Assembly: GCA_036397475.1 (NCBI GenBank)
Contig: DASWIV010000020.1
Span: 1-28,944 of the forward strand
Length of the DNA: 28,944 nucleotides
Direction of reading: 5' to 3'
Origin: a bacterium
GTDB lineage: Bacteria > JAJVIF01 > JAPKYR01
The position numbers and the translations under genes were made by a program. This document shows, piece after piece, positions 2,838-18,741 of the stretch. Under the pieces are notes generated by a model, which worked only from the letters and a program-made list of their open reading frames with translations, had not been told where the DNA came from and searched no databases. Position 1 is the stretch's first letter. Each line of letters starts with the position of its first letter.

Positions 2838-4034
2838 ATGCCTTCTTTATGGAGGGTTTTTAATATGAAATTCCCAATCACATACTTTTCTCTAATATTG
2901 CTTGCCGCATTGATTTTTATCCCGGCGTCGAGTGTCCGTGCCGAGATCATGAACGATACGGAGTACGGTTCTCTCGAGATAATAGACATTTCCGTCATCG
3001 AGAACGCCGCTGACCGGTTCACGCCGGTCGGACTGTCATTCAACGTGACCCGTGGCGGAACGGTGTATCATGGCGATCAGGTTATCATCAAGTACAGGGG
3101 TATCCATGAGCGATGGGTCACTATTCTCGATTACACTCCCGACAGGATCGTCAAGCCATTGGTCTTCAATGAAAAGACCTCATTACTCGATGGGCTCGAC
3201 CGCGAATACACCGCCGAGGTTGGAGGGGCAACCGGCGACGAATATATTCTGATGATCGTGAGCACCCTGCCGATCACCGACAGCCAGCTCGAAACGTACG
3301 CGCTTGCGCCCGATGAGATCGAACCGGGAGAAAATATATTGCTGGTTGCAGTGAATAATTTCAGGGTCGCGCCACGATGGAATACCGGCGACTCCGTTGT
3401 CGAATGGGGCAACAGCCTGAGAAGCGACTATTCAGACATCGGGTGGATCCCGCTTGAGGAATTCGCGACCTATATCAATTATCCCCTGAACCAGCCGCGC
3501 TATAATCCGTGGCGGTATATGTACCTCTATCCTTATCCACGAATTCGGCCGACCACTTACATTAACAATTTCGGCCCATTAACAAATACCTGGTACGTGA
3601 TCCCGCAGGGGAACACGATACAGAGCAATTTCTGGAATTATTCCAATACAGGATGGATCGATAACGGAATCTGGGTAATTCCTCCGGGAGGATCGTGGGA
3701 AGGCAAGTTCCGGCTGAACGACCCCTACGCGGATTATTACCTTCGAGTATTACCTTTTATCGCGCGCAATTCATCCATGGCGAATTACCGGGTTGAGATC
3801 AACGGCACACTGGTCCAGCCATCGATCGACATCACCGGCGCAATCGGTTGGGGCGAGTACTGGACCACAAATCCGTTTAACTATTACAGCATGCAGAATT
3901 TCCTCAGGGCAGGCGAGAATGACATCCGCATCTATGTCCCCGAAGATGCGTCGGACGACCTGTACATTCAGTTGGCCGATGTTGTCCCGACGGAAACGGT
4001 TCAGGATGAACTGGACGCTGTCGAAACGGAATAA
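2838..4034 (+). CDS. Secreted hypothetical protein rich in Trp/Tyr/Asn, with an N-terminal signal peptide
   Basis: Long ORF preceded by a GGAGGGGG Shine-Dalgarno. A cleavable signal peptide MKFPITYFSLILLAALIFIPASSVRA is present, and the real start may be the internal Met at 2865. The mature protein is rich in W/Y/N/P (NYPLNQPRYNPWRYMYLYPYP...). I recognise no family. Confidence 0.6.
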   Translation: MPSLWRVFNMKFPITYFSLILLAALIFIPASSVRAEIMNDTEYGSLEIIDISVIENAADRFTPVGLSFNVTRGGTVYHGDQVIIKYRGIHERWVTILDYTPDRIVKPLVFNEKTSLLDGLDREYTAEVGGATGDEYILMIVSTLPITDSQLETYALAPDEIEPGENILLVAVNNFRVAPRWNTGDSVVEWGNSLRSDYSDIGWIPLEEFATYINYPLNQPRYNPWRYMYLYPYPRIRPTTYINNFGPLTNTWYVIPQGNTIQSNFWNYSNTGWIDNGIWVIPPGGSWEGKFRLNDPYADYYLRVLPFIARNSSMANYRVEINGTLVQPSIDITGAIGWGEYWTTNPFNYYSMQNFLRAGENDIRIYVPEDASDDLYIQLADVVPTETVQDELDAVETE

Positions 4035-4666: not shown

Positions 4667-5902
4667 TTATTTAACCGCGAGCCAGCCGGCGGCTTCCTCC
4701 GAGTATCCCGCCGTATTGCTTACGTTAACGGAATTTGTGCCATCCGTGTTCATGACATAAAGATCCGTGAAGTCGAAAACCGGATCTTTCCTGAAATAAA
4801 ATATCAGGCTCCCGTCGTACGATACGGGGGGCACATTCGACGGCGGCCTCTGCCACGAGGTCCGCAGGCCTTCCGGCGTAAGAAATTCCTGGTTGGTGCC
4901 GTCGAGATCACATTTCATTATCCTGCCTACCGGCGTTTCCTCATTTTCAGAAGCTACCTGCCGCCGCAGCAGCAATTTATCGACACCATCGGAATCCATG
5001 AATATCTGGTATACGTAACTGACCGACCCCTCCTCCATTGCAAGCTCGGTTTCAGTTCCGAATGCAATATCGACCGACAGGATATTCCTCGACCTCATTC
5101 CGCTCAGCGCGGAAGCGGAGGGATCGTACGGCTTTGTGTCCGTGAAAATGGTCCGGAAATTTCTATCTATAAATGCCGGTCCAAGTTTTGTTATCGATTC
5201 ATACGTATGAAGCGTCTCCGTTTCGCCGGTGTCCGAATCGATTGAAACGTGGCTGTAGTTGTTAACTCCTTCCGGCGACCTTTGAACGACACATATCCTG
5301 CCTGTTCCCGGAATCACCGTTATGGGAACCTCCTCGACAGGCTGGGTGTACAGCCCACGGATAGTCAGAGTTGCGACATCGCACTCGAATACATGGAACT
5401 GGCCCGTGTCTCTTGAGATCTTCGATAAAAAGAAGACCTTTGAGCCGTCAGGGGAAAAAATTGGTGTGGTAGAGAGATTCCTCGAATTTTGTCCCTGGCT
5501 CGATACATCCTGCATACGTCCGGTCTCAAGATTGAATATCCATAGATGCTTTTCGTCGTATCCTGCGGTGATCTGGACCGAAGCCACAAACGCGATATGT
5601 GTTCCGGCGGGCGACGGGACAATGTGATAAATGAACTGAGGGTGATTGAACAATAGTTCGCGGCGCTCGCCATCGGGGCTTGCGATTAAAACGTGTCCGG
5701 TATTCGAATTATTTGTGAGTCCGCGCTGGTATTCATTAACCATGTATACAAGGTACAGTCCGGAGGTATCCTTGAGTGAGGTTGCCTGAACTCCATGCTC
5801 CCGGGGGTGCTCTTCCGACAATTTATTCGGGCAGGCGGACGCGGATGCCATAGCCAGCAGTACGAAAATGACCTGCACGATTTTTTTGATAATGAACCGC
5901 AC
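4667..5902 (-). CDS. Secreted beta-propeller protein with TolB/PD40-like repeats
   Basis: N-terminal signal peptide (MRFIIKKIVQVIFVLLAMASASAC). Repeated PD40-like motifs occur: IASPDGERRELLF, PIFSPDGSKVFFLSK, SYDGSLIFYF and YVMNTDGTN. Confidence 0.55.
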   Translation of the reverse strand: MRFIIKKIVQVIFVLLAMASASACPNKLSEEHPREHGVQATSLKDTSGLYLVYMVNEYQRGLTNNSNTGHVLIASPDGERRELLFNHPQFIYHIVPSPAGTHIAFVASVQITAGYDEKHLWIFNLETGRMQDVSSQGQNSRNLSTTPIFSPDGSKVFFLSKISRDTGQFHVFECDVATLTIRGLYTQPVEEVPITVIPGTGRICVVQRSPEGVNNYSHVSIDSDTGETETLHTYESITKLGPAFIDRNFRTIFTDTKPYDPSASALSGMRSRNILSVDIAFGTETELAMEEGSVSYVYQIFMDSDGVDKLLLRRQVASENEETPVGRIMKCDLDGTNQEFLTPEGLRTSWQRPPSNVPPVSYDGSLIFYFRKDPVFDFTDLYVMNTDGTNSVNVSNTAGYSEEAAGWLAVK

Positions 5903-10468: not shown

Positions 10469-10545
10469 TGGTGGGCGCGAATGGATTCGAACCATCGACC
10501 TCTACCGTGTGAAGGTAGCGCTCTAACCAACTGAGCTACGCGCCC
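10469..10545 (-). tRNA. tRNA-Val (anticodon CAC), CCA encoded
   Basis: The reverse complement folds into a canonical 77 nt cloverleaf: acceptor GGGCGCG/CGCGCCC, D-stem GCTC/GAGC, anticodon stem CTACC/GGTAG with loop TTCACAC (anticodon CAC), T-loop TTCGAAT, discriminator A and a 3' CCA. Confidence 0.85.
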
Positions 10546-11839: not shown

Positions 11840-12400
11840 TTAGTCCAGCGCGTAGATAAATCTCTCCGCTGCAGTATAGTGGCCGGCTTTTGCAAGCGCA
11901 CACAGCAGTGCGAGGGCCCTGTCCCGGTCTCCGGGATACGACTCCACCTCTTCAACCATTTCCTCAAGTTTCACCGGATCGATACCAGCCCCATTTAAGG
12001 ACGCATTAAAATATTCCCTGGCTTTCAGTGGGATCAGCCTCATTGCCTGCCCGATATATTTCGATGCCTTCGCTAATTCCCTGATTTTAGCGGCATTCAG
12101 GCCACCAATGAGAAGTCCCGCGAACGAATTCGGGTGATTTTCAATGTATTTGTCGAGGTATTCAGCCGCTTCCGGATACCTCTTCATCAGGTACAACGAC
12201 CGTCCGGCGACAAGTTTGATCTTATCGGGTAAATTTTCCTGGTTGAGTAAAGCGGAAATATTCCTTAACGCTCCCGGCGCATCGCCCTTTTTTAAGTCTT
12301 CCATGGCACGCGAAACAGCCATTCCGATCTCGCGCTCCGACATCTTGAGGGTGCTTTGATGGGCCGCTGAGGTGGTTTTGAATAATGTGAAAAGGAACAT
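11840..12400 (-). CDS. Hypothetical alpha-helical (TPR-like) protein
   Basis: 186 aa ORF of helical repeat-like character. The start is uncertain (12400, or the internal Met at 12343). It is transcribed divergently from the NTase operon. Confidence 0.45.
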   Translation of the reverse strand: MFLFTLFKTTSAAHQSTLKMSEREIGMAVSRAMEDLKKGDAPGALRNISALLNQENLPDKIKLVAGRSLYLMKRYPEAAEYLDKYIENHPNSFAGLLIGGLNAAKIRELAKASKYIGQAMRLIPLKAREYFNASLNGAGIDPVKLEEMVEEVESYPGDRDRALALLCALAKAGHYTAAERFIYALD

Positions 12401-12574
12401 GGATTTGTCCGTTGGGAGTCCTGAAGAGATTTAAACTAAATTAATGTCGGGGGATCATGGAAAATGTGGGACAATTTACATGCCTGGAAATGGGAAAAAA
12501 CCGGATTAACCTGTAATGGAAATATATCGCAAAACCTGCTTCCGTTGTGATACCATAGCAGGGGGGAACGACTG

Positions 12575-13234
12575 ATGAGTCAACTTGAAAAGATAGACAT
12601 TAAAGCTTACCGGGACGAAATGACGGAGTTTCCATCGTTGCGTAATCCGGCGGATCGCCACAAGAAAATTCTACGATGGCTGACCAGGCTATCAACCGAC
12701 CTGGGATGTCCGCCACCGGTTCTTGTCGGATGCGGCGCTGTCGAAGTTTATACCGACGCGCAGACCGCGACAGGCGACGTGGACATCATCGCGCCCGACC
12801 TCGGAAAACTCTGGTCTGCCCTTTTGGAGCTGGGTTTCCAGCGGTCGTCAGACCAGAGATTCTCATTCCATCAATCTTATTCGCTTCTCTTCGAGTTCCC
12901 GTCGGATAAACTTCGGGAAGGCGAGGAAACCGTGAGTATCGATATCGACGGGGTCGAGTGCAAGGTCATAAGTCCCGAGGACCTGGTGATCGACAGGCTC
13001 GAGATGTTCGAAGCTACCAACAGCGGTACCGACCTTGTTTACGCTTACATGATCTACCACGGGCTGCACGACAAGCTTAACCATAAAAAGATCGTGGACA
13101 GGGTGAAAAAATCCGATTTGAAAAATATTTTCAAATTCATTCACAGCCTGCATATAAAAGCGAAAGACGAGGGTATTTCGATCGACGAGCAGGGAAGCGA
13201 AATTTCAGAACATATCAGAAGGAAGATGTCCTGA
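12575..13234 (+). CDS. Pol-beta-superfamily minimal nucleotidyltransferase-fold protein (cassette 1, A1)
   Basis: Motif VLVGCGAVEVYTDAQTATGDVDII fits hG[GS]-x9-13-Dh[DE]h. A downstream acidic beta-strand is conserved (SLLFEF). AGGGGGGA Shine-Dalgarno. It is a paralog of the 13459-14130 protein. Confidence 0.7.
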   Translation: MSQLEKIDIKAYRDEMTEFPSLRNPADRHKKILRWLTRLSTDLGCPPPVLVGCGAVEVYTDAQTATGDVDIIAPDLGKLWSALLELGFQRSSDQRFSFHQSYSLLFEFPSDKLREGEETVSIDIDGVECKVISPEDLVIDRLEMFEATNSGTDLVYAYMIYHGLHDKLNHKKIVDRVKKSDLKNIFKFIHSLHIKAKDEGISIDEQGSEISEHIRRKMS

Positions 13235-13236
13235 CC

Positions 13237-13443
13237 ATGACAGAATGGGAAACTTTAATGGCGGATGAAGACAGGTTCAGAAGGAAGACTTTCGCGCGGG
13301 CTTTGCTGATGGCGGTCGACGAGGATTGCCTTACCAGAAAACCGCGCGACCCGTCCAAGGAAACCCTGATGAAACAGCTCGGGCTTCCCGAGCGGTACCC
13401 CGAAGTCGATACTAAATCGATTCACAAAAGTTCTGATGAATAA
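13237..13443 (+). CDS. Small helical partner protein (cassette 1, B1), tightly coupled to A1
   Basis: Starts 2 nt after the A1 stop, with an AGGAAG Shine-Dalgarno. 68 aa. The core FARALLMAVDEDCLTRKPRDPSKETLMKQLGL is conserved in the paralog at 14118-14315. Confidence 0.6.
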   Translation: MTEWETLMADEDRFRRKTFARALLMAVDEDCLTRKPRDPSKETLMKQLGLPERYPEVDTKSIHKSSDE

Positions 13444-13458
13444 GTAGATCTCCAGACC

Positions 13459-14130
13459 ATGGCTGTACGCACCGACAAAGCTATTGCGGATCTCGCGGAA
13501 AAACTTGGCGAGATACAGCTCCTCGATCCAGGGGAAAGACACATATTTCTCCTCTGGCTGATTACCCGCGGGATGACTCTCCTCGGTGCCGACAGACCTG
13601 TAATGGTAGGCGGCGGATCGGTTGAACTTTATACCAGCATACACATAGCAACCGGCGACCTGGATCTTGTCGTCAAGGATATCGATGCATGCGTCTTCGT
13701 GCTGGAAAGTCTAGGATTTGTCCGCCATGAAAATACCAACCATTTCGTAAATCGCGACTGCGCGATGCTTGTGGAACTTCATGGAAAGCAGCTTTTTCCC
13801 GGAGAAGAATCTGTCGAACTCTCTTACCGGAAATCGCTTTTGCGCGTTATCAGTCCCGAGGACTGCATCGTCAACAGGCTTGCGGAATATAAAAAGCACG
13901 GCTCAACCATGGACCTCCTTTCGTCACTGTACATCTCCATGCTCGTACGCGAACGCCTGGATTTCAAACGGCTGCATCAGCGGATCGATGAATTCGGGCT
14001 TTTGGATTACTACCGGCTTATCCAGGACCTTGGACGGCAGGTCGTTCTTCAGCATATCGGTCCCGACGAGGTCGCCGGAGTTCTCATTAATTTTATAAAA
14101 ACCGGGGAGTATCGCGAATGCGCGTTTTGA
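13459..14130 (+). CDS. Pol-beta-superfamily minimal nucleotidyltransferase-fold protein (cassette 2, A2)
   Basis: PVMVGGGSVELYTSIHIATGDLDLVV carries the same NTase motif. It shares with A1 the N-terminal helix, the VISPEDxIVxRL block and the downstream acidic strand (AMLVEL). It starts 15 nt after B1. Confidence 0.7.
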   Translation: MAVRTDKAIADLAEKLGEIQLLDPGERHIFLLWLITRGMTLLGADRPVMVGGGSVELYTSIHIATGDLDLVVKDIDACVFVLESLGFVRHENTNHFVNRDCAMLVELHGKQLFPGEESVELSYRKSLLRVISPEDCIVNRLAEYKKHGSTMDLLSSLYISMLVRERLDFKRLHQRIDEFGLLDYYRLIQDLGRQVVLQHIGPDEVAGVLINFIKTGEYRECAF

Positions 14131-14315
14131 AGTACGATCAGATCGTCAAGGATAAGGAGTCAAACATGGCATTTGGCTACCAGCTCATTCGCGCGATAGA
14201 CCCTCGCCTTATTACCCACCGTCCGAGAGATATCGAAAAGGCCATCCTCATGAAGGAACTCGGAATGGACCTCACAATGGCGGAAGCCCCGCCCGGAAAA
14301 AAATCCAAATCCTGA
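14118..14315 (+). CDS. Small helical partner protein (cassette 2, B2), overlapping the A2 stop by 13 nt
   Basis: 65 aa. FGYQLIRAIDPRLITHRPRDIEKAILMKELGM aligns with B1 with no gaps, and both have 18 residues before the conserved Phe. GGGGAG Shine-Dalgarno. Confidence 0.55.
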   Translation: MRVLKYDQIVKDKESNMAFGYQLIRAIDPRLITHRPRDIEKAILMKELGMDLTMAEAPPGKKSKS

Positions 14316-14344: not shown

Positions 14345-16711
14345 TTATTCCGTTTCCGTAAGCCTCTCAAGCGGAGCTTTCAGTTCACTGAGTAGCTTCT
14401 GTCCCGTCTCTTCAAAATTTATCTGAAGGAAATGGTCCCCGCCTCCAGCCTGCTGTATCTTTACCACCTTTCCCTCACCGAAGGTCGGATGCTTCACCCT
14501 CTCTCCGACAGTGTAAGTAGATGGGATTTTCGGAGTGTCTTTAGCCTCGCGCAGGCGACCAAGAAGTTTGTCGCGGGTTCCTGAATTCACCATGCTGTCG
14601 CGCCGTTTTTCTTCAGCCCATTCGTATGCGCGCGGAAGAACGTTCCATCCTTCACCCATTCCCGAGTACTGCTCATCGACAAGGTTTCTCATTTTCGACG
14701 GCACGCGCATTTCCTGTTCGACTTCGCCCTCCAGCGCCCTTCTGCTGATCTTGTCGGTTGGCATTATCAGCTCACCAGGTATTTCGGAGAAAAATCTCGA
14801 CGGTATCGCGCCGCCGACCGGATTGCGGTTCCTCCAGAACATGCTCGACCGCTTATAAACCGCCGACATGAACAGGCGGTCCATCGCGCGCGTTATCCCG
14901 ACATACGCAAGCCTACGCTCTTCTTCCAGCTCACGGTCGTCGTGCATCGATCTTGCGTGCGGAAACAACCCTTCTTCCATACCGGCCAGAAATACAACCG
15001 GAAATTCAAGACCCTTCGCCGAATGGGCAGTAAGGCATTTCACGCAATCGTCGGTATTTCTCATGCTGTCGGTATCCTGGATCAACGCCACGTGTTCCAG
15101 GAATACCGGAAGCCCCTCGGTCGGATACGCCTCGTCGAATCTCGTGATCGCCCCTTTAAGTTCCTCAATATTTTCAAGCCGCGATTCAGCCTCGATGGTA
15201 TCCGAGTCTTTCAGGCGCCTTTCATATCCCGACTCGTCAAGTATTCTTCCGGTCAGTTCAAACACGGAGAACGATTCTTTTTCCTCGTGAAGCAGCCGGA
15301 CCATGTCGCAGAAGCGGATGATCCTGTTTGCAGCGTAAGTTCCCAGCTGAATCCACAGATCTTCCCTAAATGGAATTTCATGGAGCCCGATATCCTGCTC
15401 GGTTAAAAGCTGCAGGAGTTTAGTGAAACTTTGCTGCCCGATCCCGCGAGTGGGAGTGTTTATTATTCTCTGGAGGCTGATAGTATCCCACGGGTTCTGA
15501 ACCAGCTTCAGGTACGCAATGACATCCTTGATCTCCTTCCGCTCGTAAAACCTGAACCCGCCGATAACCTGGTACGGGATCGAGTACTGTGTAAAGATTT
15601 CCTCGAACATTCTCGACAGGGAATTTGTCCGGTACAGGATCGCGAAGTCGTTGTAACTCCGCTTATCCGCTTTCATGTGGGTTTCGATGGTCTCGGCGAT
15701 AAAAATCGCTTCATCTTCGTCTGTGTGGCAGTACCTGAATGAAAGCGGTTCGCCTTCGCCACGGTTTGTCCAGAGATTCTTGTAATGCCGTTTCGGATTA
15801 TTTTTTACCAGTGCGTTCGCAGCATCGAGTATGTTCGAGTGTGACCGGTAGTTTTCCTCGAGCTTAACCACCGCCGCGCCGGGGAAATCATCCTCGAAAT
15901 TCAGTATGTATTTCGGATCGGCACCACGGAACTTGTAAATCGACTGGTCGTCGTCACCGACCACACACACATTGCTGTCGCGTTCAGCCAGCAGTTTGGT
16001 GAACACGTATTGAGCCTTGTTGATGTCCTGGTACTCATCCACCTGAATGTACCGGTAGCGGTTCTGAAGCCTGTCCTGCGTTTTCGGCGACTCCTGCATG
16101 AGCTCGACCGCCTTCATTATCAGGTCGTCGAAGTCGAGCGCTTTGATCTGGATAAGTCCCTTCTGGTACGCCTCGTAAACTTCCCCTACAATCGTCTCCC
16201 AGCGGTCCATCGCTTTTTCCTGGTAAGATTTCCAGTCGATTAGATTGGACTTCGCCGTCGATATCGCTCCGGCAATCGAACGTGGATCGTAATGGTTCGG
16301 ATCAATGCCAAGCCCTTTCTGGCACCGCTTGATAAGGATCGCGGATTCAGTGTCGTCGAAGATCTGGAATTCGGTCGGAACACCGATCTCGCCCCCGAAT
16401 TTTCTGAGGATCTGCGAGCAGGTGCGATGGAATGTTCCAAGCGGAACCTCATGACCTTCTATCCCGACCAGCTTATGCACACGGTTGCGCATCTCCTCAG
16501 CGGCTTTATTGGTGAATGTCACACCGAGGATCTGCCACGGCTTGCAGGTCTTGGTGAAGATGAGGTTGGCTGCTCGATACGCGATAACGCGAGTCTTGCC
16601 GCTGCCTGCGCCGGCAAGCACGAGCACGGGTCCGTGGATTGACTCCACAGCTCTCCTTTGCTCGGGATTGAGGTCAGTCTCGAGGACTTTGTCGAACTGG
16701 ATTACCGCCAT
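14345..16711 (-). CDS. UvrD/PcrA/Rep-family ATP-dependent DNA helicase with a C-terminal Tudor-like domain
   Basis: Helicase motifs I (LAGAGSGKT), Ia (TFTNKAAEEM), II (VDEYQD), III (VVGDDDQSIYKFRGA), IV/V (YRS...) and VI (VGITRA). The C-terminal GERVKHPTFGEGKVV is a UvrD C-terminal domain. Confidence 0.92.
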   Translation of the reverse strand: MAVIQFDKVLETDLNPEQRRAVESIHGPVLVLAGAGSGKTRVIAYRAANLIFTKTCKPWQILGVTFTNKAAEEMRNRVHKLVGIEGHEVPLGTFHRTCSQILRKFGGEIGVPTEFQIFDDTESAILIKRCQKGLGIDPNHYDPRSIAGAISTAKSNLIDWKSYQEKAMDRWETIVGEVYEAYQKGLIQIKALDFDDLIMKAVELMQESPKTQDRLQNRYRYIQVDEYQDINKAQYVFTKLLAERDSNVCVVGDDDQSIYKFRGADPKYILNFEDDFPGAAVVKLEENYRSHSNILDAANALVKNNPKRHYKNLWTNRGEGEPLSFRYCHTDEDEAIFIAETIETHMKADKRSYNDFAILYRTNSLSRMFEEIFTQYSIPYQVIGGFRFYERKEIKDVIAYLKLVQNPWDTISLQRIINTPTRGIGQQSFTKLLQLLTEQDIGLHEIPFREDLWIQLGTYAANRIIRFCDMVRLLHEEKESFSVFELTGRILDESGYERRLKDSDTIEAESRLENIEELKGAITRFDEAYPTEGLPVFLEHVALIQDTDSMRNTDDCVKCLTAHSAKGLEFPVVFLAGMEEGLFPHARSMHDDRELEEERRLAYVGITRAMDRLFMSAVYKRSSMFWRNRNPVGGAIPSRFFSEIPGELIMPTDKISRRALEGEVEQEMRVPSKMRNLVDEQYSGMGEGWNVLPRAYEWAEEKRRDSMVNSGTRDKLLGRLREAKDTPKIPSTYTVGERVKHPTFGEGKVVKIQQAGGGDHFLQINFEETGQKLLSELKAPLERLTETE

Positions 16712-16791: not shown

Positions 16792-18741
16792 TTATGAATC
16801 ATTCCCTTTAAAATTATAAGAACTGCCTGTATTTCCATGCATATCTGTCCTTTCCAGCGGATCATTTCCAGACCATTTGAACAATTTTCTTCCTTCCCCG
16901 AATGCTCCAGTCAGATCGACATCCATCTCCTCATAATTCGGGATTTCATTTATGTATTCTCCGGTTACTACATAATCAATTCCATATTGCTCAAGCCTGA
17001 ATGCCGTTTCATCATCAAGAATTCCGGTCTCGGCTGAACTTTTGAATGCAGGGATAATTTCACCGCGGATAGCCTCATTCCATTGTGCCGGAGGCAAAGG
17101 CGTGTACGGGTCCATTGTCTGGACGCCGAACATTATCGGAGTGTTCCCCGAACACAAATCCGGAAGATGATCCTGCGGAGTGAACATGTTGAAATCCAGG
17201 ATATCTATCTCGTCGAACAGTTTTGCTTCTGTTACAAGAAGGCGTGGCGGCACGTTATCGTCCCTCGTTATGTGGCTGAAAAATTCATTTGTGATACGGG
17301 AATATTTTTCCATCGGCATTGTCGCCAGACGTCCTACAGGAAACATGATGAACAGGTGGAAAAATATATACAGGCCTAGCGTGAGTTTTGTCATCACTGG
17401 AAATTCAGGTCTCGCGAGCCCTCCGATGACCATCAGCGCAATGACCATATCAATAAGGAAAATTGTTCCACCCCATCTGATAGCACGTGAATTATCAATC
17501 GTCAGCAGAAATATCACCAGCAGGAACATAAGGATTCCCGAAATCCATGAAAAATGTCGCCAGTTAATTTTTATGGGGTTCTCTGTGTCAGTGAGTGATG
17601 ATAAATGAGACGCTCCTAGTGCCGAAAGCACGACAACAACCCCGATCGCGAAACGTCCGATATACCTGAATTTATCGAGCAGTGGCAGCTTGATTAGTAA
17701 ATGCCATAGAGGATTGTACATCGCGAAAGCAAGAATCAACGCCGCCAGTCCCATAATTATAAGTGGGGCGTCAGCTTTCCAGTTTTTCCTTATGGTAAAG
17801 ATCCTTAGTGTCGCAAGGACTGAGCATAGCAGCCCGACATAGATAAGGCTCGATCCCCAGTGGACTACTTCTGTGGGTTCGCCGTAGCTTGGGAAATAAT
17901 ACGCTGATCCCAGCCGCAGCGGATTCAGCCATGTCCCTAAATAATAAAAGCTATTAGATATACCTGCCCTGGCAGTTTCAGGCAGATATCCCAGTACGGC
18001 GAATAGCAATGGAGCGCCAATCACCATGGTTCCACCTATAAATGAGCCAATAATGGCAGCGGATTTTTTCAGCCTGTTTATCCTGCTCGGATTTTCTGAA
18101 AACACATGGCCCGCTAAATAAAAAATTACCAGGACGAACATGTAGAAGAAAATCTGCGCATTTCCAGCCAGAAAAACGAATCCCGCGACAATTGCGATTA
18201 TTCCCAGGCTTTTCATAGCCAATTTTTCTCCGGGATTTTCTATCATCCTGTCGCAGAGCCATAAAAAAAGCGGGAACCACACGACAGACTGCAGCAGCGC
18301 CATCGACGTGATGTGAAACAATAAAAACGGGGCTGTCTGGAACATCACCGCTCCGAAAAATGCGCCAATCTGATTCGTTCCACGTCCCCTCAGCCACAGA
18401 TACATGAACTGTCCTGCCAGGATGAAGTGGATGATGTAGGTCAGATTCGCCCAGTAGAAAAAATTGCCAGGCAAATGCATGAGCCAGTTTCCCGGATACA
18501 GAAGTCCCGACTCGCTCTCAGCGAACTGCGGCATTCCCGTGTACATGTAATGGTTCCAGATCGGGAAGTGCCCGTCGCGGACCATCTCTACGTCGTACCA
18601 TTTAAGGGGGAGATTCAGGCGGGTGACGTCCCAACCTGCAAACTGCGAGTAGCCGATCAGTTCCGGGAAGAACATCGCGCATGGGATTAAAAGCAGCAGG
18701 ATATGGAATATGTCGATTCTGCCTTTCAACGGGTGAATCAT
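16792..18741 (-). CDS. Polytopic membrane protein, YfhO-like (putative glycosyl or lipid-linked transferase)
   Basis: 649 aa with more than 11 TM helices. The N-terminal motif region DVTRLNLPLKWYDVEMVRDGHFPIWNHYMYTGMPQFAESESGLLYPGNW resembles the YfhO family. Confidence 0.5.
   Translation of the reverse strand: MIHPLKGRIDIFHILLLLIPCAMFFPELIGYSQFAGWDVTRLNLPLKWYDVEMVRDGHFPIWNHYMYTGMPQFAESESGLLYPGNWLMHLPGNFFYWANLTYIIHFILAGQFMYLWLRGRGTNQIGAFFGAVMFQTAPFLLFHITSMALLQSVVWFPLFLWLCDRMIENPGEKLAMKSLGIIAIVAGFVFLAGNAQIFFYMFVLVIFYLAGHVFSENPSRINRLKKSAAIIGSFIGGTMVIGAPLLFAVLGYLPETARAGISNSFYYLGTWLNPLRLGSAYYFPSYGEPTEVVHWGSSLIYVGLLCSVLATLRIFTIRKNWKADAPLIIMGLAALILAFAMYNPLWHLLIKLPLLDKFRYIGRFAIGVVVVLSALGASHLSSLTDTENPIKINWRHFSWISGILMFLLVIFLLTIDNSRAIRWGGTIFLIDMVIALMVIGGLARPEFPVMTKLTLGLYIFFHLFIMFPVGRLATMPMEKYSRITNEFFSHITRDDNVPPRLLVTEAKLFDEIDILDFNMFTPQDHLPDLCSGNTPIMFGVQTMDPYTPLPPAQWNEAIRGEIIPAFKSSAETGILDDETAFRLEQYGIDYVVTGEYINEIPNYEEMDVDLTGAFGEGRKLFKWSGNDPLERTDMHGNTGSSYNFKGNDS

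Follow-up and report, generated by a model that had tools for sequence, protein, structure and literature searches.

The 28,944-nt stretch of DNA analysed here (contig DASWIV010000020.1, hereafter the window) carries on its forward strand a cassette of four small genes, arranged in tandem as A1-B1-A2-B2. A1 (12575..13234, +) encodes a 219-aa minimal nucleotidyltransferase (NTase) of the pol-beta superfamily, followed by a C-terminal five-helix domain, with G52-x-G54, D68, D70 and E107 at the catalytic positions. B1 (13237..13443, +) encodes a 68-aa small partner of a helix-[RK]PRDP-helix family. A2 (13459..14130, +) encodes a paralog of A1, 223 aa long, whose catalytic residues are the same (G51-G53, D67, D69 and E106), and B2 (14118..14315, +) a 65-aa basic small partner (isoelectric point, pI, 9.6) whose start lies inside the 3′ end of A2. 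According to a mechanical listing of open reading frames (ORFs), the four genes lie as an earlier note on this DNA had placed them, with 2 nt between the A1 stop and the B1 start, 15 nt between the B1 stop and the A2 start, and a 13-nt overlap between A2 and B2. The same note had taken the two modules for paralogs, and this was confirmed: A1 and A2 share 30% identity over 195 aa (E=7e-30), and B1 and B2 38% identity over a 40-residue core (E=9e-9).

The overlap, ATGCGCGTTTTGA (14118-14130), is dual-coding. B2 begins within the last codons of A2, and a GGGAG Shine-Dalgarno sequence for B2 is found within the A2 3′ end, 9-14 nt upstream of the B2 start. This dual coding accounts for the near-invariance among orthologs of ..ECAF at the end of A2 and of MR[IV]L at the start of B2, which, to judge from the sequence, is not to be taken as a functional tail motif. 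A G-rich, Shine-Dalgarno-like GGGGGGA stands ahead of the A1 ATG.

The A proteins

Both A copies carry the NTase signature VG[CG]G[AS]VE..YT.....TGDxD, with E107 in LLFEF/LVELH, and then SPED..(x)RL. In an alignment of 34 A sequences, comprising A1-type and A2-type orthologs, the G-loop residue G52 and D68, D70, D136, R141 and D153 are invariant, the third carboxylate (E107) is Glu or Asp in all 34, and the SPED..RL helix is nearly invariant. Invariant basic residues are few, just R28 and R141. T60 and T66 are invariant too. Conservation of the catalytic residues among homologs had been named beforehand as a test, and it held. The pol-beta signature announced for both copies is present as well, with the correction that most orthologs have Ala where the G[GS] motif canonically has Ser. 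All the elements that define pol-beta NTases were found, namely hG[GS], a [DE]h[DE]h motif 9-13 residues on, a third carboxylate and an alpha-beta-alpha-beta-alpha-beta core. Since the catalytic residues are kept in A1 and in A2, both paralogs look like catalytically competent pol-beta-fold nucleotidyltransferases.

An AlphaFold2 model of A1, produced with the 34-sequence alignment (pLDDT 93.4, pTM 0.89), shows a six-stranded NTase core with a helical element before it, at the N-terminus, and a C-terminal domain of five helices after it. Nine structural neighbours of this model were retrieved, each with its listed value: 5uvd, a fungal NTase-like protein without known function (12.0), the MenT1 toxin (11.2), ANT(2'')-Ia (11.1), TglT/MenT3 (10.5), LnuA (9.7), TM1012 (9.4), JHP933 (9.3), MenT4 (9.2) and the C-terminal domain of AbiEi (7.9). 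The top Foldseek match was MenT1, in the MenAT1 complex (8an5_B, E=8.5e-4, TM about 0.45-0.5). The modelled A1 resembles the AbiEii/MenT proteins both in its catalytic core and in the helical domain that follows, and the solved bacterial structure predicted to be nearest to it is the MenT1 toxin.

Sequence searches placed the A proteins less precisely. Scores were below the gathering cut-off of Pfam DUF6036 (PF19502; A1 21.5 bits, A2 16.9 bits, cut-off 23.6) and below that of DUF2204 (PF09970; A1 18.1 bits, A2 16.3 bits, cut-off 20.3), and NTP_transf_5 also gave a sub-threshold match. Some A orthologs or relatives carry a precomputed PF19502 assignment, and distant relatives pass DUF2204 with 25-34 bits; A1 and A2 of the window seem to sit at the edge of the DUF6036 family. 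An NCBIfam scan of A2 returned just two chance-level matches (12 bits, for cut-offs of 480 and 81), and PDB sequence searches with A1 alone and with the A profile gave chance-level matches, MenT1 not being found by the A profile. Among 1.84 billion cluster representatives, the A profile retrieved 1,181 relatives at E<=1e-3, of which just 7 at E<=1e-30, so that the A proteins of the window appear to be a narrow sub-branch of a broad NTase family, mostly of about 180-230 aa, whose scores lie close to the DUF2204 and DUF6036 thresholds. No described function, partner or publication was found for either family: a literature search on DUF6036/PF19502 returned no publication, one on DUF2204 a single, unrelated mention, and an accession search result holding PF14907 was unrelated. 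The full-length A2 orthologs are all exactly 223 aa long, the lone shorter entry (149 aa) coming from a 1.3-kb contig.

Given this fold, A might be a small-molecule NTase in the manner of ANT(2'')-Ia or of the lincosamide NTase LnuA, acting on a cationic metabolite or antibiotic. B would then regulate A or compete for its acidic substrate pocket. A-family proteins are indeed acidic (pI 4.5-6.1, and 5.5 for A1 and A2), as aminoglycoside-modifying NTases are, and sizes are similar (175-220 aa). Nevertheless, A matched no resistance family of Pfam or NCBIfam at any threshold tried, ANT(2'')-Ia and LnuA included. The hosts are uncultured environmental bacteria, the genes lie in a housekeeping context, and A-family matches on plasmids are rare (18, all weak). 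Known resistance NTases are typically found on mobile resistance elements, and they have neither a conserved, translationally coupled small partner nor a partner fused to an Xre domain, as is found for A relatives (see below). We therefore consider this explanation improbable.

One branch of A relatives has no B. In Sphingomonadales, an A protein of about 182 aa starts 4 nt inside the stop of an ORF of 965-1109 aa (L043:2885-6474; L048, L055, L057, L060, L065, L069 and L077). In the two loci scanned, L043 and L055, this upstream ORF is UvrA (UvrA_inter, UvrA_DNA-bind and ABC_tran domains). The conserved uvrA-NTase arrangement hints at a role other than toxin-antitoxin (TA) for this B-less branch.

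The small partner proteins

The B core, ..[RH][RK]PRD..K..LM..LG, is conserved between B1 and B2, as had been pointed out before. Neither protein has a match in Pfam, NCBIfam or PADLOC. We built a B hidden Markov model (HMM) locally from B1 and B2 and iterated it over the fetched loci; B1 scores E=8.5e-27 against this family model. In a collection of 5.8 billion proteins, the B profile retrieved 357 proteins (clusters at 90% identity) at E<=0.01. Among the 120 matches listed, lengths are 56-112 aa, and none has a Pfam domain, an informative name or a name given by its source; no publication on the family was found. The consensus of the main clade reads xxYDEFxxEVxRRKRxRWxxIL..E..GR..GRRPRDPEKERLLLxLDRARL. 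Within the PRD triplet the Arg is invariant, and the Pro and Asp nearly so. B proteins encoded in single A-B pairs are strongly basic (pI 9.2-11.7).

The AlphaFold2 model of B2 has two helices, a long one (6-26) and a second (39-48), with HRPRD in the loop between them, and ends in a disordered tail. Being largely unfolded alone, B probably folds on a partner, as far as can be told from such a model. No match to it was found among PDB folds, which is a weak test given the low confidence of the model (pLDDT 72, pTM 0.34), and the B profile found no PDB sequence at E<0.9, MenA1 included.

Orthologs of B1 (74-82 aa) and of B2 (75-95 aa) are longer than the two proteins of the window (68 and 65 aa), which corrects the earlier description of the pair. 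Ortholog B1 proteins have a conserved tail, EVQYPSPGNTPDDL, followed by acidic residues, and ortholog B2 proteins a Lys/Arg-rich and then acidic tail; comparison with L001:6663-6887 and L001:7559-7846 indicates that both tails have been lost or shortened in the window. Clamp domains made of tetratricopeptide repeats (TPR) bind acidic C-terminal peptides. The acidic C-termini of the ortholog B proteins resemble ligands of such clamps, a speculative link to the TPR gene that accompanies the cassette (see below). We also considered B as the precursor of a ribosomally synthesised and post-translationally modified peptide, with a conserved leader and a variable tail. This was rejected, for lack of maturation or export genes and of a conserved acceptor residue; furthermore, many single-pair B proteins stop shortly after helix 2.

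Alternatively, it may be that roles are reversed, in a type VII-like manner, and that the NTase is an antitoxin which neutralises a toxic, basic B or uses B as its substrate. In HEPN-MNT systems the antitoxin, MNT, is a minimal NTase established to act on its partner, and a protein as basic as B could do harm through nucleic-acid binding. However, B has no conserved Ser/Thr/Tyr acceptor, its lone conserved aromatic position being Tyr or Trp and its invariant residues Pro-Arg. Neither Pfam nor the B alignment revealed a HEPN domain or an Rx4-6H motif, and at 65-68 aa B1 and B2 are half the size of HEPN toxins, so that the HEPN partner which characterises type VII systems is missing. Finally, an element homologous to B is found fused to an Xre helix-turn-helix (HTH) domain, which marks antitoxins and not toxins. 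Of the explanations weighed here, this one is the least probable.

Conservation and surroundings of the cassette

Whether A-B pairs co-occur in other genomes had been proposed as a check, and the answer was clear. In Delta- and Gammaproteobacteria and in other metagenome-assembled genomes (MAGs), the B HMM finds small ORFs that come directly after single A homologs. Six distant B homologs were chosen on long contigs with the B profile alone, and 6/6 were found directly downstream of an A-type protein of 189-224 aa, with a 4-nt overlap. The A profile recognises each of the six upstream proteins (E 1e-19 to 1e-28), and these distant A proteins keep GGG...DxD, the third Glu and an IEDL..DRL helix. 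Five further single A-B pairs were found on genome contigs of Delta-, Gammaproteobacteria and others. We take A and B to be a truly coupled pair, found together across phyla, the single A-B pair being the common form and the tandem form lineage-specific. Neighbourhoods of the distant pairs vary by lineage (argS/thiG, sulfatase, alcohol dehydrogenase, haem biosynthesis). Upstream of one single pair, on a 4.1-Mb contig, a 659-aa protein without Pfam or PADLOC match (L085:2411-4390) is encoded with a 4-nt overlap.

The partner of A is not always a free-standing B. In 16 loci of Acidobacteriota, Gemmatimonadota and others, an A homolog is followed, with an overlap, by a 110-130-aa Xre/HTH_3 protein. 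The C-terminal half of this protein is the HTH (HTH_3, E=3e-14), closest, below threshold, to antitoxin-type families (Y4mF/HipB, MqsA). Its N-terminal half aligns as ...R.[RK]PRD(Y/P).EW..LRRWG, the element shared with B being [RK]PRD...L+R(L/W)G. In the subtype of L056 and L015 this half is KRLRPRDPDEERALRRLG; searched against about 7,000 ORFs, the B HMM recognises it in one of these proteins with E=4.5e-6. Type II antitoxins are typically built from a neutralising arm joined to a DNA-binding domain. As the B motif is found in the N-terminal half of the Xre partners, B is the free-standing equivalent of that arm. A literature search for an NTase toxin with an Xre partner returned just AbiE and MenT papers.

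Other variants were scored. In two Bacillota MAGs (L024:887-1709 and L027:801-1623) a clear B-like gene (..YEAFQ...RRRPRDP..) lies upstream of A, in the order opposite to that of the window. On Leptospira interrogans plasmid pLiSL32 (L092:2197-3088) and on 12 other Leptospira plasmids, near parA and parB, an A relative follows a 114-aa protein whose C-terminus is ..STRRRPREKGKP (ending ...RRRPREKGKP). This protein has no Pfam match and reads as winged-helix-like; its C-terminal element may be the same putative NTase-binding motif on a different scaffold. On a plasmid of N. vulgaris DP4, an A relative is followed by a 78-aa protein with RRKPRTPGD.

The tandem form, with a TPR gene on the opposite strand (-) followed by A1-B1-A2-B2 (+), was found in 10 independent uncultured genomes, labelled Planctomycetota or plain 'bacterium', the proteins being 44-63% identical to those of the window. 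These are the window itself, L001, L002, L004, L007, L093, L095, L096, and two MAGs in which the assembly breaks in or just after B1, so that the block is spread over two contigs and the tandem form is deduced (L005+L010 and L008+L013). Three other genomes have the TPR gene followed by A2-B2 without A1-B1 (L009:1548-3296, L011:5030-6723 and L012:5129-6875), which shows that the two pairs can be separated. A distance tree places the A1 clade as sister to the A2 clade, with the A2 of L011 nested in the latter. The simplest history suggested by the tree is one old duplication in a Planctomycetota-like lineage, followed by occasional loss of A1-B1.

In the window the TPR gene lies at 11840..12400 (-). 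The ORF is 186 aa long, or about 167 aa if the start is Met20, and its matches to TPR_16 (E=1.4e-5) and TPR_6 (E=3.8e-5) are both under the gathering score. Wherever upstream sequence is available in a related locus, a TPR ortholog (E 1e-24 to 1e-36) precedes the A/B genes in divergent orientation. Outside the TPR gene flanks vary: Dxr/RseP/MarR/TetR, RuvX/HAD, a methyltransferase with an unknown gene, AcrB, and UvrD here. The conserved unit is therefore the TPR gene with the A/B pairs, to the exclusion of the helicase and the tRNA. The earlier note had correctly described a convergent UvrD gene, a divergent TPR-like gene and a tRNA-Val about 2 kb away; the UvrD/PcrA helicase, with its C-terminal Tudor domain, lies at 14345-16711, and the tRNA-Val(CAC) at 10469-10545, about 2.0 kb upstream of the cassette. 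A link of either of these two with the cassette was rejected, since neither recurs in the 12 related genomes.

In three loci the cassette adjoins a type II N6/N4 DNA methyltransferase (L001:7933-10125, with PADLOC MTase_II at E=1.6e-64 for the methyltransferase, L004:3273-5232 and L093:7165-10235). Beside it stands a 322-335-aa protein without Pfam match, and in two of the three (L004 and L093) a ParA-like ATPase follows. These loci may be a restriction-modification system.

The TPR/A1 divergent intergenic region (12401..12574, 174 nt) presumably holds the promoters. Scans for promoters, terminators and repeats found nothing there exceeding background, with no match to the sigma-70 consensus. 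The base composition of the cassette is the same as that of the remainder of the window, and the genes around it are housekeeping genes (XseA, FolD, a PduO-type adenosyltransferase, UvrD/PcrA, flotillins). A PADLOC-DB v2 scan gave no match for A1, B1, A2, B2 or the TPR protein, and the matches of UvrD to the GajB and DRT models reflect generic UvrD similarity, the protein having the PcrA/UvrD Tudor domain. Outside the window, tblastn against 50,697 phage records gave no match, and no A relative was found in IMG/VR. Two viral contigs matched a DNA pattern back-translated from RRPRDPE[KQ]E; having no nearby A gene and weak B scores, they were taken as chance. A defence-island or mobile setting was thus not found, and the context of the cassette is not a defence island.

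Other features of the window are listed for completeness. An antisense ORF of 129 aa (13255-13644, -), overlapping B1 and the start of A2, is probably spurious. Further genes, likewise of a housekeeping kind, encode an NtrC-type sigma-54 activator, a TlyA/FtsJ methyltransferase, a subtilase and a heparinase-like protein. Sizeable ORFs without Pfam match lie at 16792-18741 (-), 1889-2740, 2838-4034 and 4667-5902. Among their products, a 649-aa protein that adjoins UvrD looks strongly hydrophobic and is probably a membrane protein.

In another explanation, A and B would be the two subunits of a holoenzyme with a non-toxic cellular role, the Arg-rich B being a nucleic-acid-binding or activating subunit. 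The [RK]PRDP loop could, for example, supply Arg/Lys to the triphosphate or substrate site of an NTase that is acidic elsewhere, RNA or DNA ends would be modified in physiology or repair, and in the present lineage the TPR protein would be a further subunit. This would suit an A protein with few invariant basic residues (R28 and R141) and a B whose invariant Pro-Arg is flanked by basic residues; every A-family protein that was checked is acidic, and the B proteins of single pairs are strongly basic. Tight translational coupling suggests stoichiometric production, and the TPR + A/B block is inherited vertically and stably in 13 genomes, among housekeeping genes. In another clade the pair keeps its position between argS and an HMGL-like gene, and the B-less A branch is fixed directly downstream of uvrA in Sphingomonadales. 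A partner fused to an Xre HTH, however, is built in the classical way of an antitoxin or repressor, unlike an enzyme subunit. The module is scattered unevenly over the phyla, exchanges its partners and flips its gene order; the four proteins do not form one obligate complex, as A1-B1 is missing in three genomes that keep A2-B2; and the nearest solved bacterial relatives are toxins. A holoenzyme of this kind is in our opinion unlikely, though it deserves more credit than the small-molecule and reversed-role explanations.

Likeness to known systems and proposed function

The earlier note had recognised no characterised family with a 220+65 aa arrangement and size. This has to be amended: MenAT1 of M. 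tuberculosis (MenT1/Rv0078A and MenA1/Rv0078B) pairs a 195-aa NTase toxin with a 68-aa helical antitoxin (PMC10435456), in the opposite gene order and with no homology detected. MenA1 is described as two helices, the first long and the second short, joined by a loop and followed by a disordered C-terminal tail (PMC10435456), and one MenA1 bridges two MenT1 protomers, auto-phosphorylation of the toxin being induced (PMC10435456, PMC11375011). MenAT1 is the closest published analogue of the A-B pair. In both, a minimal NTase of about 195-220 aa goes with a partner of about 65-68 aa, and the B2 model has the helix-loop-helix-tail layout of MenA1; just size and layout agree. The precedent of one MenA1 for two MenT1 makes a two-enzyme arrangement conceivable here. 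Differences are several. The A1 model reaches a TM of just about 0.45-0.5, and sequence searches detected no homology; MenAT1 encodes its antitoxin ahead of the toxin, whereas B follows A here; the [RK]PRDP motif is diagnostic of B, and no similarity between B and MenA1 was found by sequence profile or by a fold search with the low-confidence B2 model; and A is acidic, whereas MenT1 has electropositive cavities (PMC10435456).

Other systems share less with the cassette. AbiE and MenAT3-4 (an AbiEii DUF1814 NTase with an AbiEi COG5340 partner) likewise encode an NTase effector alongside its cognate partner, and have a P-E-D-h-h-x-x-R/K-L helix after the catalytic sheet. However, AbiEii and MenT3/4 are about 290 aa long with additional C-terminal elements, and their antitoxin, encoded upstream, is a protein of roughly 200 aa with a winged-helix and a pseudo-NTase domain. 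Toxin-first type II TA systems with Xre antitoxins (HigBA, MqsRA) have the effector first, the partner second and a stop/start overlap, and in the 16 related loci described above the partner is an Xre/HTH_3 protein with the B motif as an N-terminal extension. Here, in contrast, the effector is an NTase and not an RNase, and the partner of the window lost the HTH or never had it. As to generic TA architecture, the window has two small co-directional genes with tight or overlapping junctions, kept as a pair, and the family shows a patchy, distant distribution with varied contexts and swapping of partner and order, position being stable within individual clades. A DNA-binding domain in the antitoxin is absent from B1 and B2 and present just in the Xre-fused relatives. 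The window proteins thus agree with known systems just in the general definition of pol-beta NTases and in this generic architecture, DNA binding excepted.

We propose, with a probability of about one half, that the locus consists of two old tandem copies of a TA-type module, with A as the effector and B as the neutraliser. The TA logic put forward in the earlier note remains the best available reading, in view of MenT1 as nearest solved bacterial structure and of the Xre-HTH-fused partners with the same motif. It is further favoured by the co-occurrence of A and B, by their close junctions (a 2-nt gap and a 13-nt overlap here, a 4-nt overlap in single-pair relatives), by an exchange of partners typical of TA modules, by the flip of gene order in the Bacillota MAGs, by the charge complementarity of A and B, by the MenA1-like layout of the B2 model, and by a weak PADLOC AbiEii match of the single-pair A of L086 (E=2.4e-4). 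A1 and A2 would each be co-translated with their own partner, B1 or B2. B would bind A through its helix-[RK]PRDP-helix, with the help of charge complementarity, and would keep it inactive, probably by filling the acidic catalytic cleft or changing its shape, by analogy with MenA1 and MenT1. Once B is lost or displaced, A, as the presumed toxin, would add nucleotides to some target in the cell and bring growth to a halt. If MenT and AbiEii are a guide, this target would be the tRNA 3′ end, which is the weakest step of the scheme. The two pairs, derived from one old duplication, would be inherited as a block with the divergent TPR gene, possibly an accessory regulator or chaperone.

Several observations weigh against this proposal. 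The enzyme-first gene order is the minority order in TA systems. No Pfam match to AbiEii/DUF1814 (PF08843) was found in A1 or A2 at E<=1, and no PADLOC AbiEii match for either. With no HTH or ribbon-helix-helix domain in B1 or B2 (Pfam, and the AlphaFold2 model of B2), and no inverted or operator-like repeat in the TPR-A1 intergenic region, a mechanism of autoregulation is not evident for the window B proteins. The stable inheritance of the TPR + A/B block among housekeeping genes, and the stable argS-[A-B]-HMGL position within one clade, fit a domesticated cellular function too. Lastly, A is acidic, whereas MenT toxins have electropositive tRNA-binding cavities (PMC10435456), and the tRNA 3′ end is a less plausible target because of this acidity.

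A broader proposal can be made more tentatively, and we hold it to be doubtful, although better placed than the holoenzyme. A and B would represent an unrecognised, widespread family of NTase TA or regulator systems, in which a portable [RK]PRDP helix-loop-helix docks into an acidic NTase. This element would occur as a stand-alone protein of 60-90 aa, as the N-terminal arm of an Xre repressor and, perhaps, at the C-terminal end of a partner that resembles a winged helix. Within one uncultured Planctomycetota-like lineage the module would have been duplicated and would have recruited a TPR protein, giving a five-gene system. The TPR protein would read the extended tails of B1 and B2, in a part that we liken to that of the chaperone or sensor in tripartite toxin-antitoxin-chaperone systems.

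The A-B family, its partner and the [RK]PRDP motif are undescribed. For now the practical result is modest, namely a well-delimited, widespread candidate family and not a demonstrated new mechanism. How NTase toxins of the MenT/AbiEii type stop translation has been understood only recently, and the antitoxins that go with them work in unusual ways, one being to induce auto-phosphorylation of the toxin. If our proposal is true, a second branch of small NTases, unrelated in sequence to MenT/AbiEii and with a partner family of 357 clusters that has no Pfam family, would broaden the picture of NTase toxins. The [RK]PRDP motif would then be a compact peptide element that may bind or inhibit NTases, and the tandem form with its TPR gene is a natural setting in which to ask whether paralogous pairs are specific for their cognate partners. 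Should B prove to be an activating subunit instead, the family would represent a new way of building a nucleotidyltransferase.

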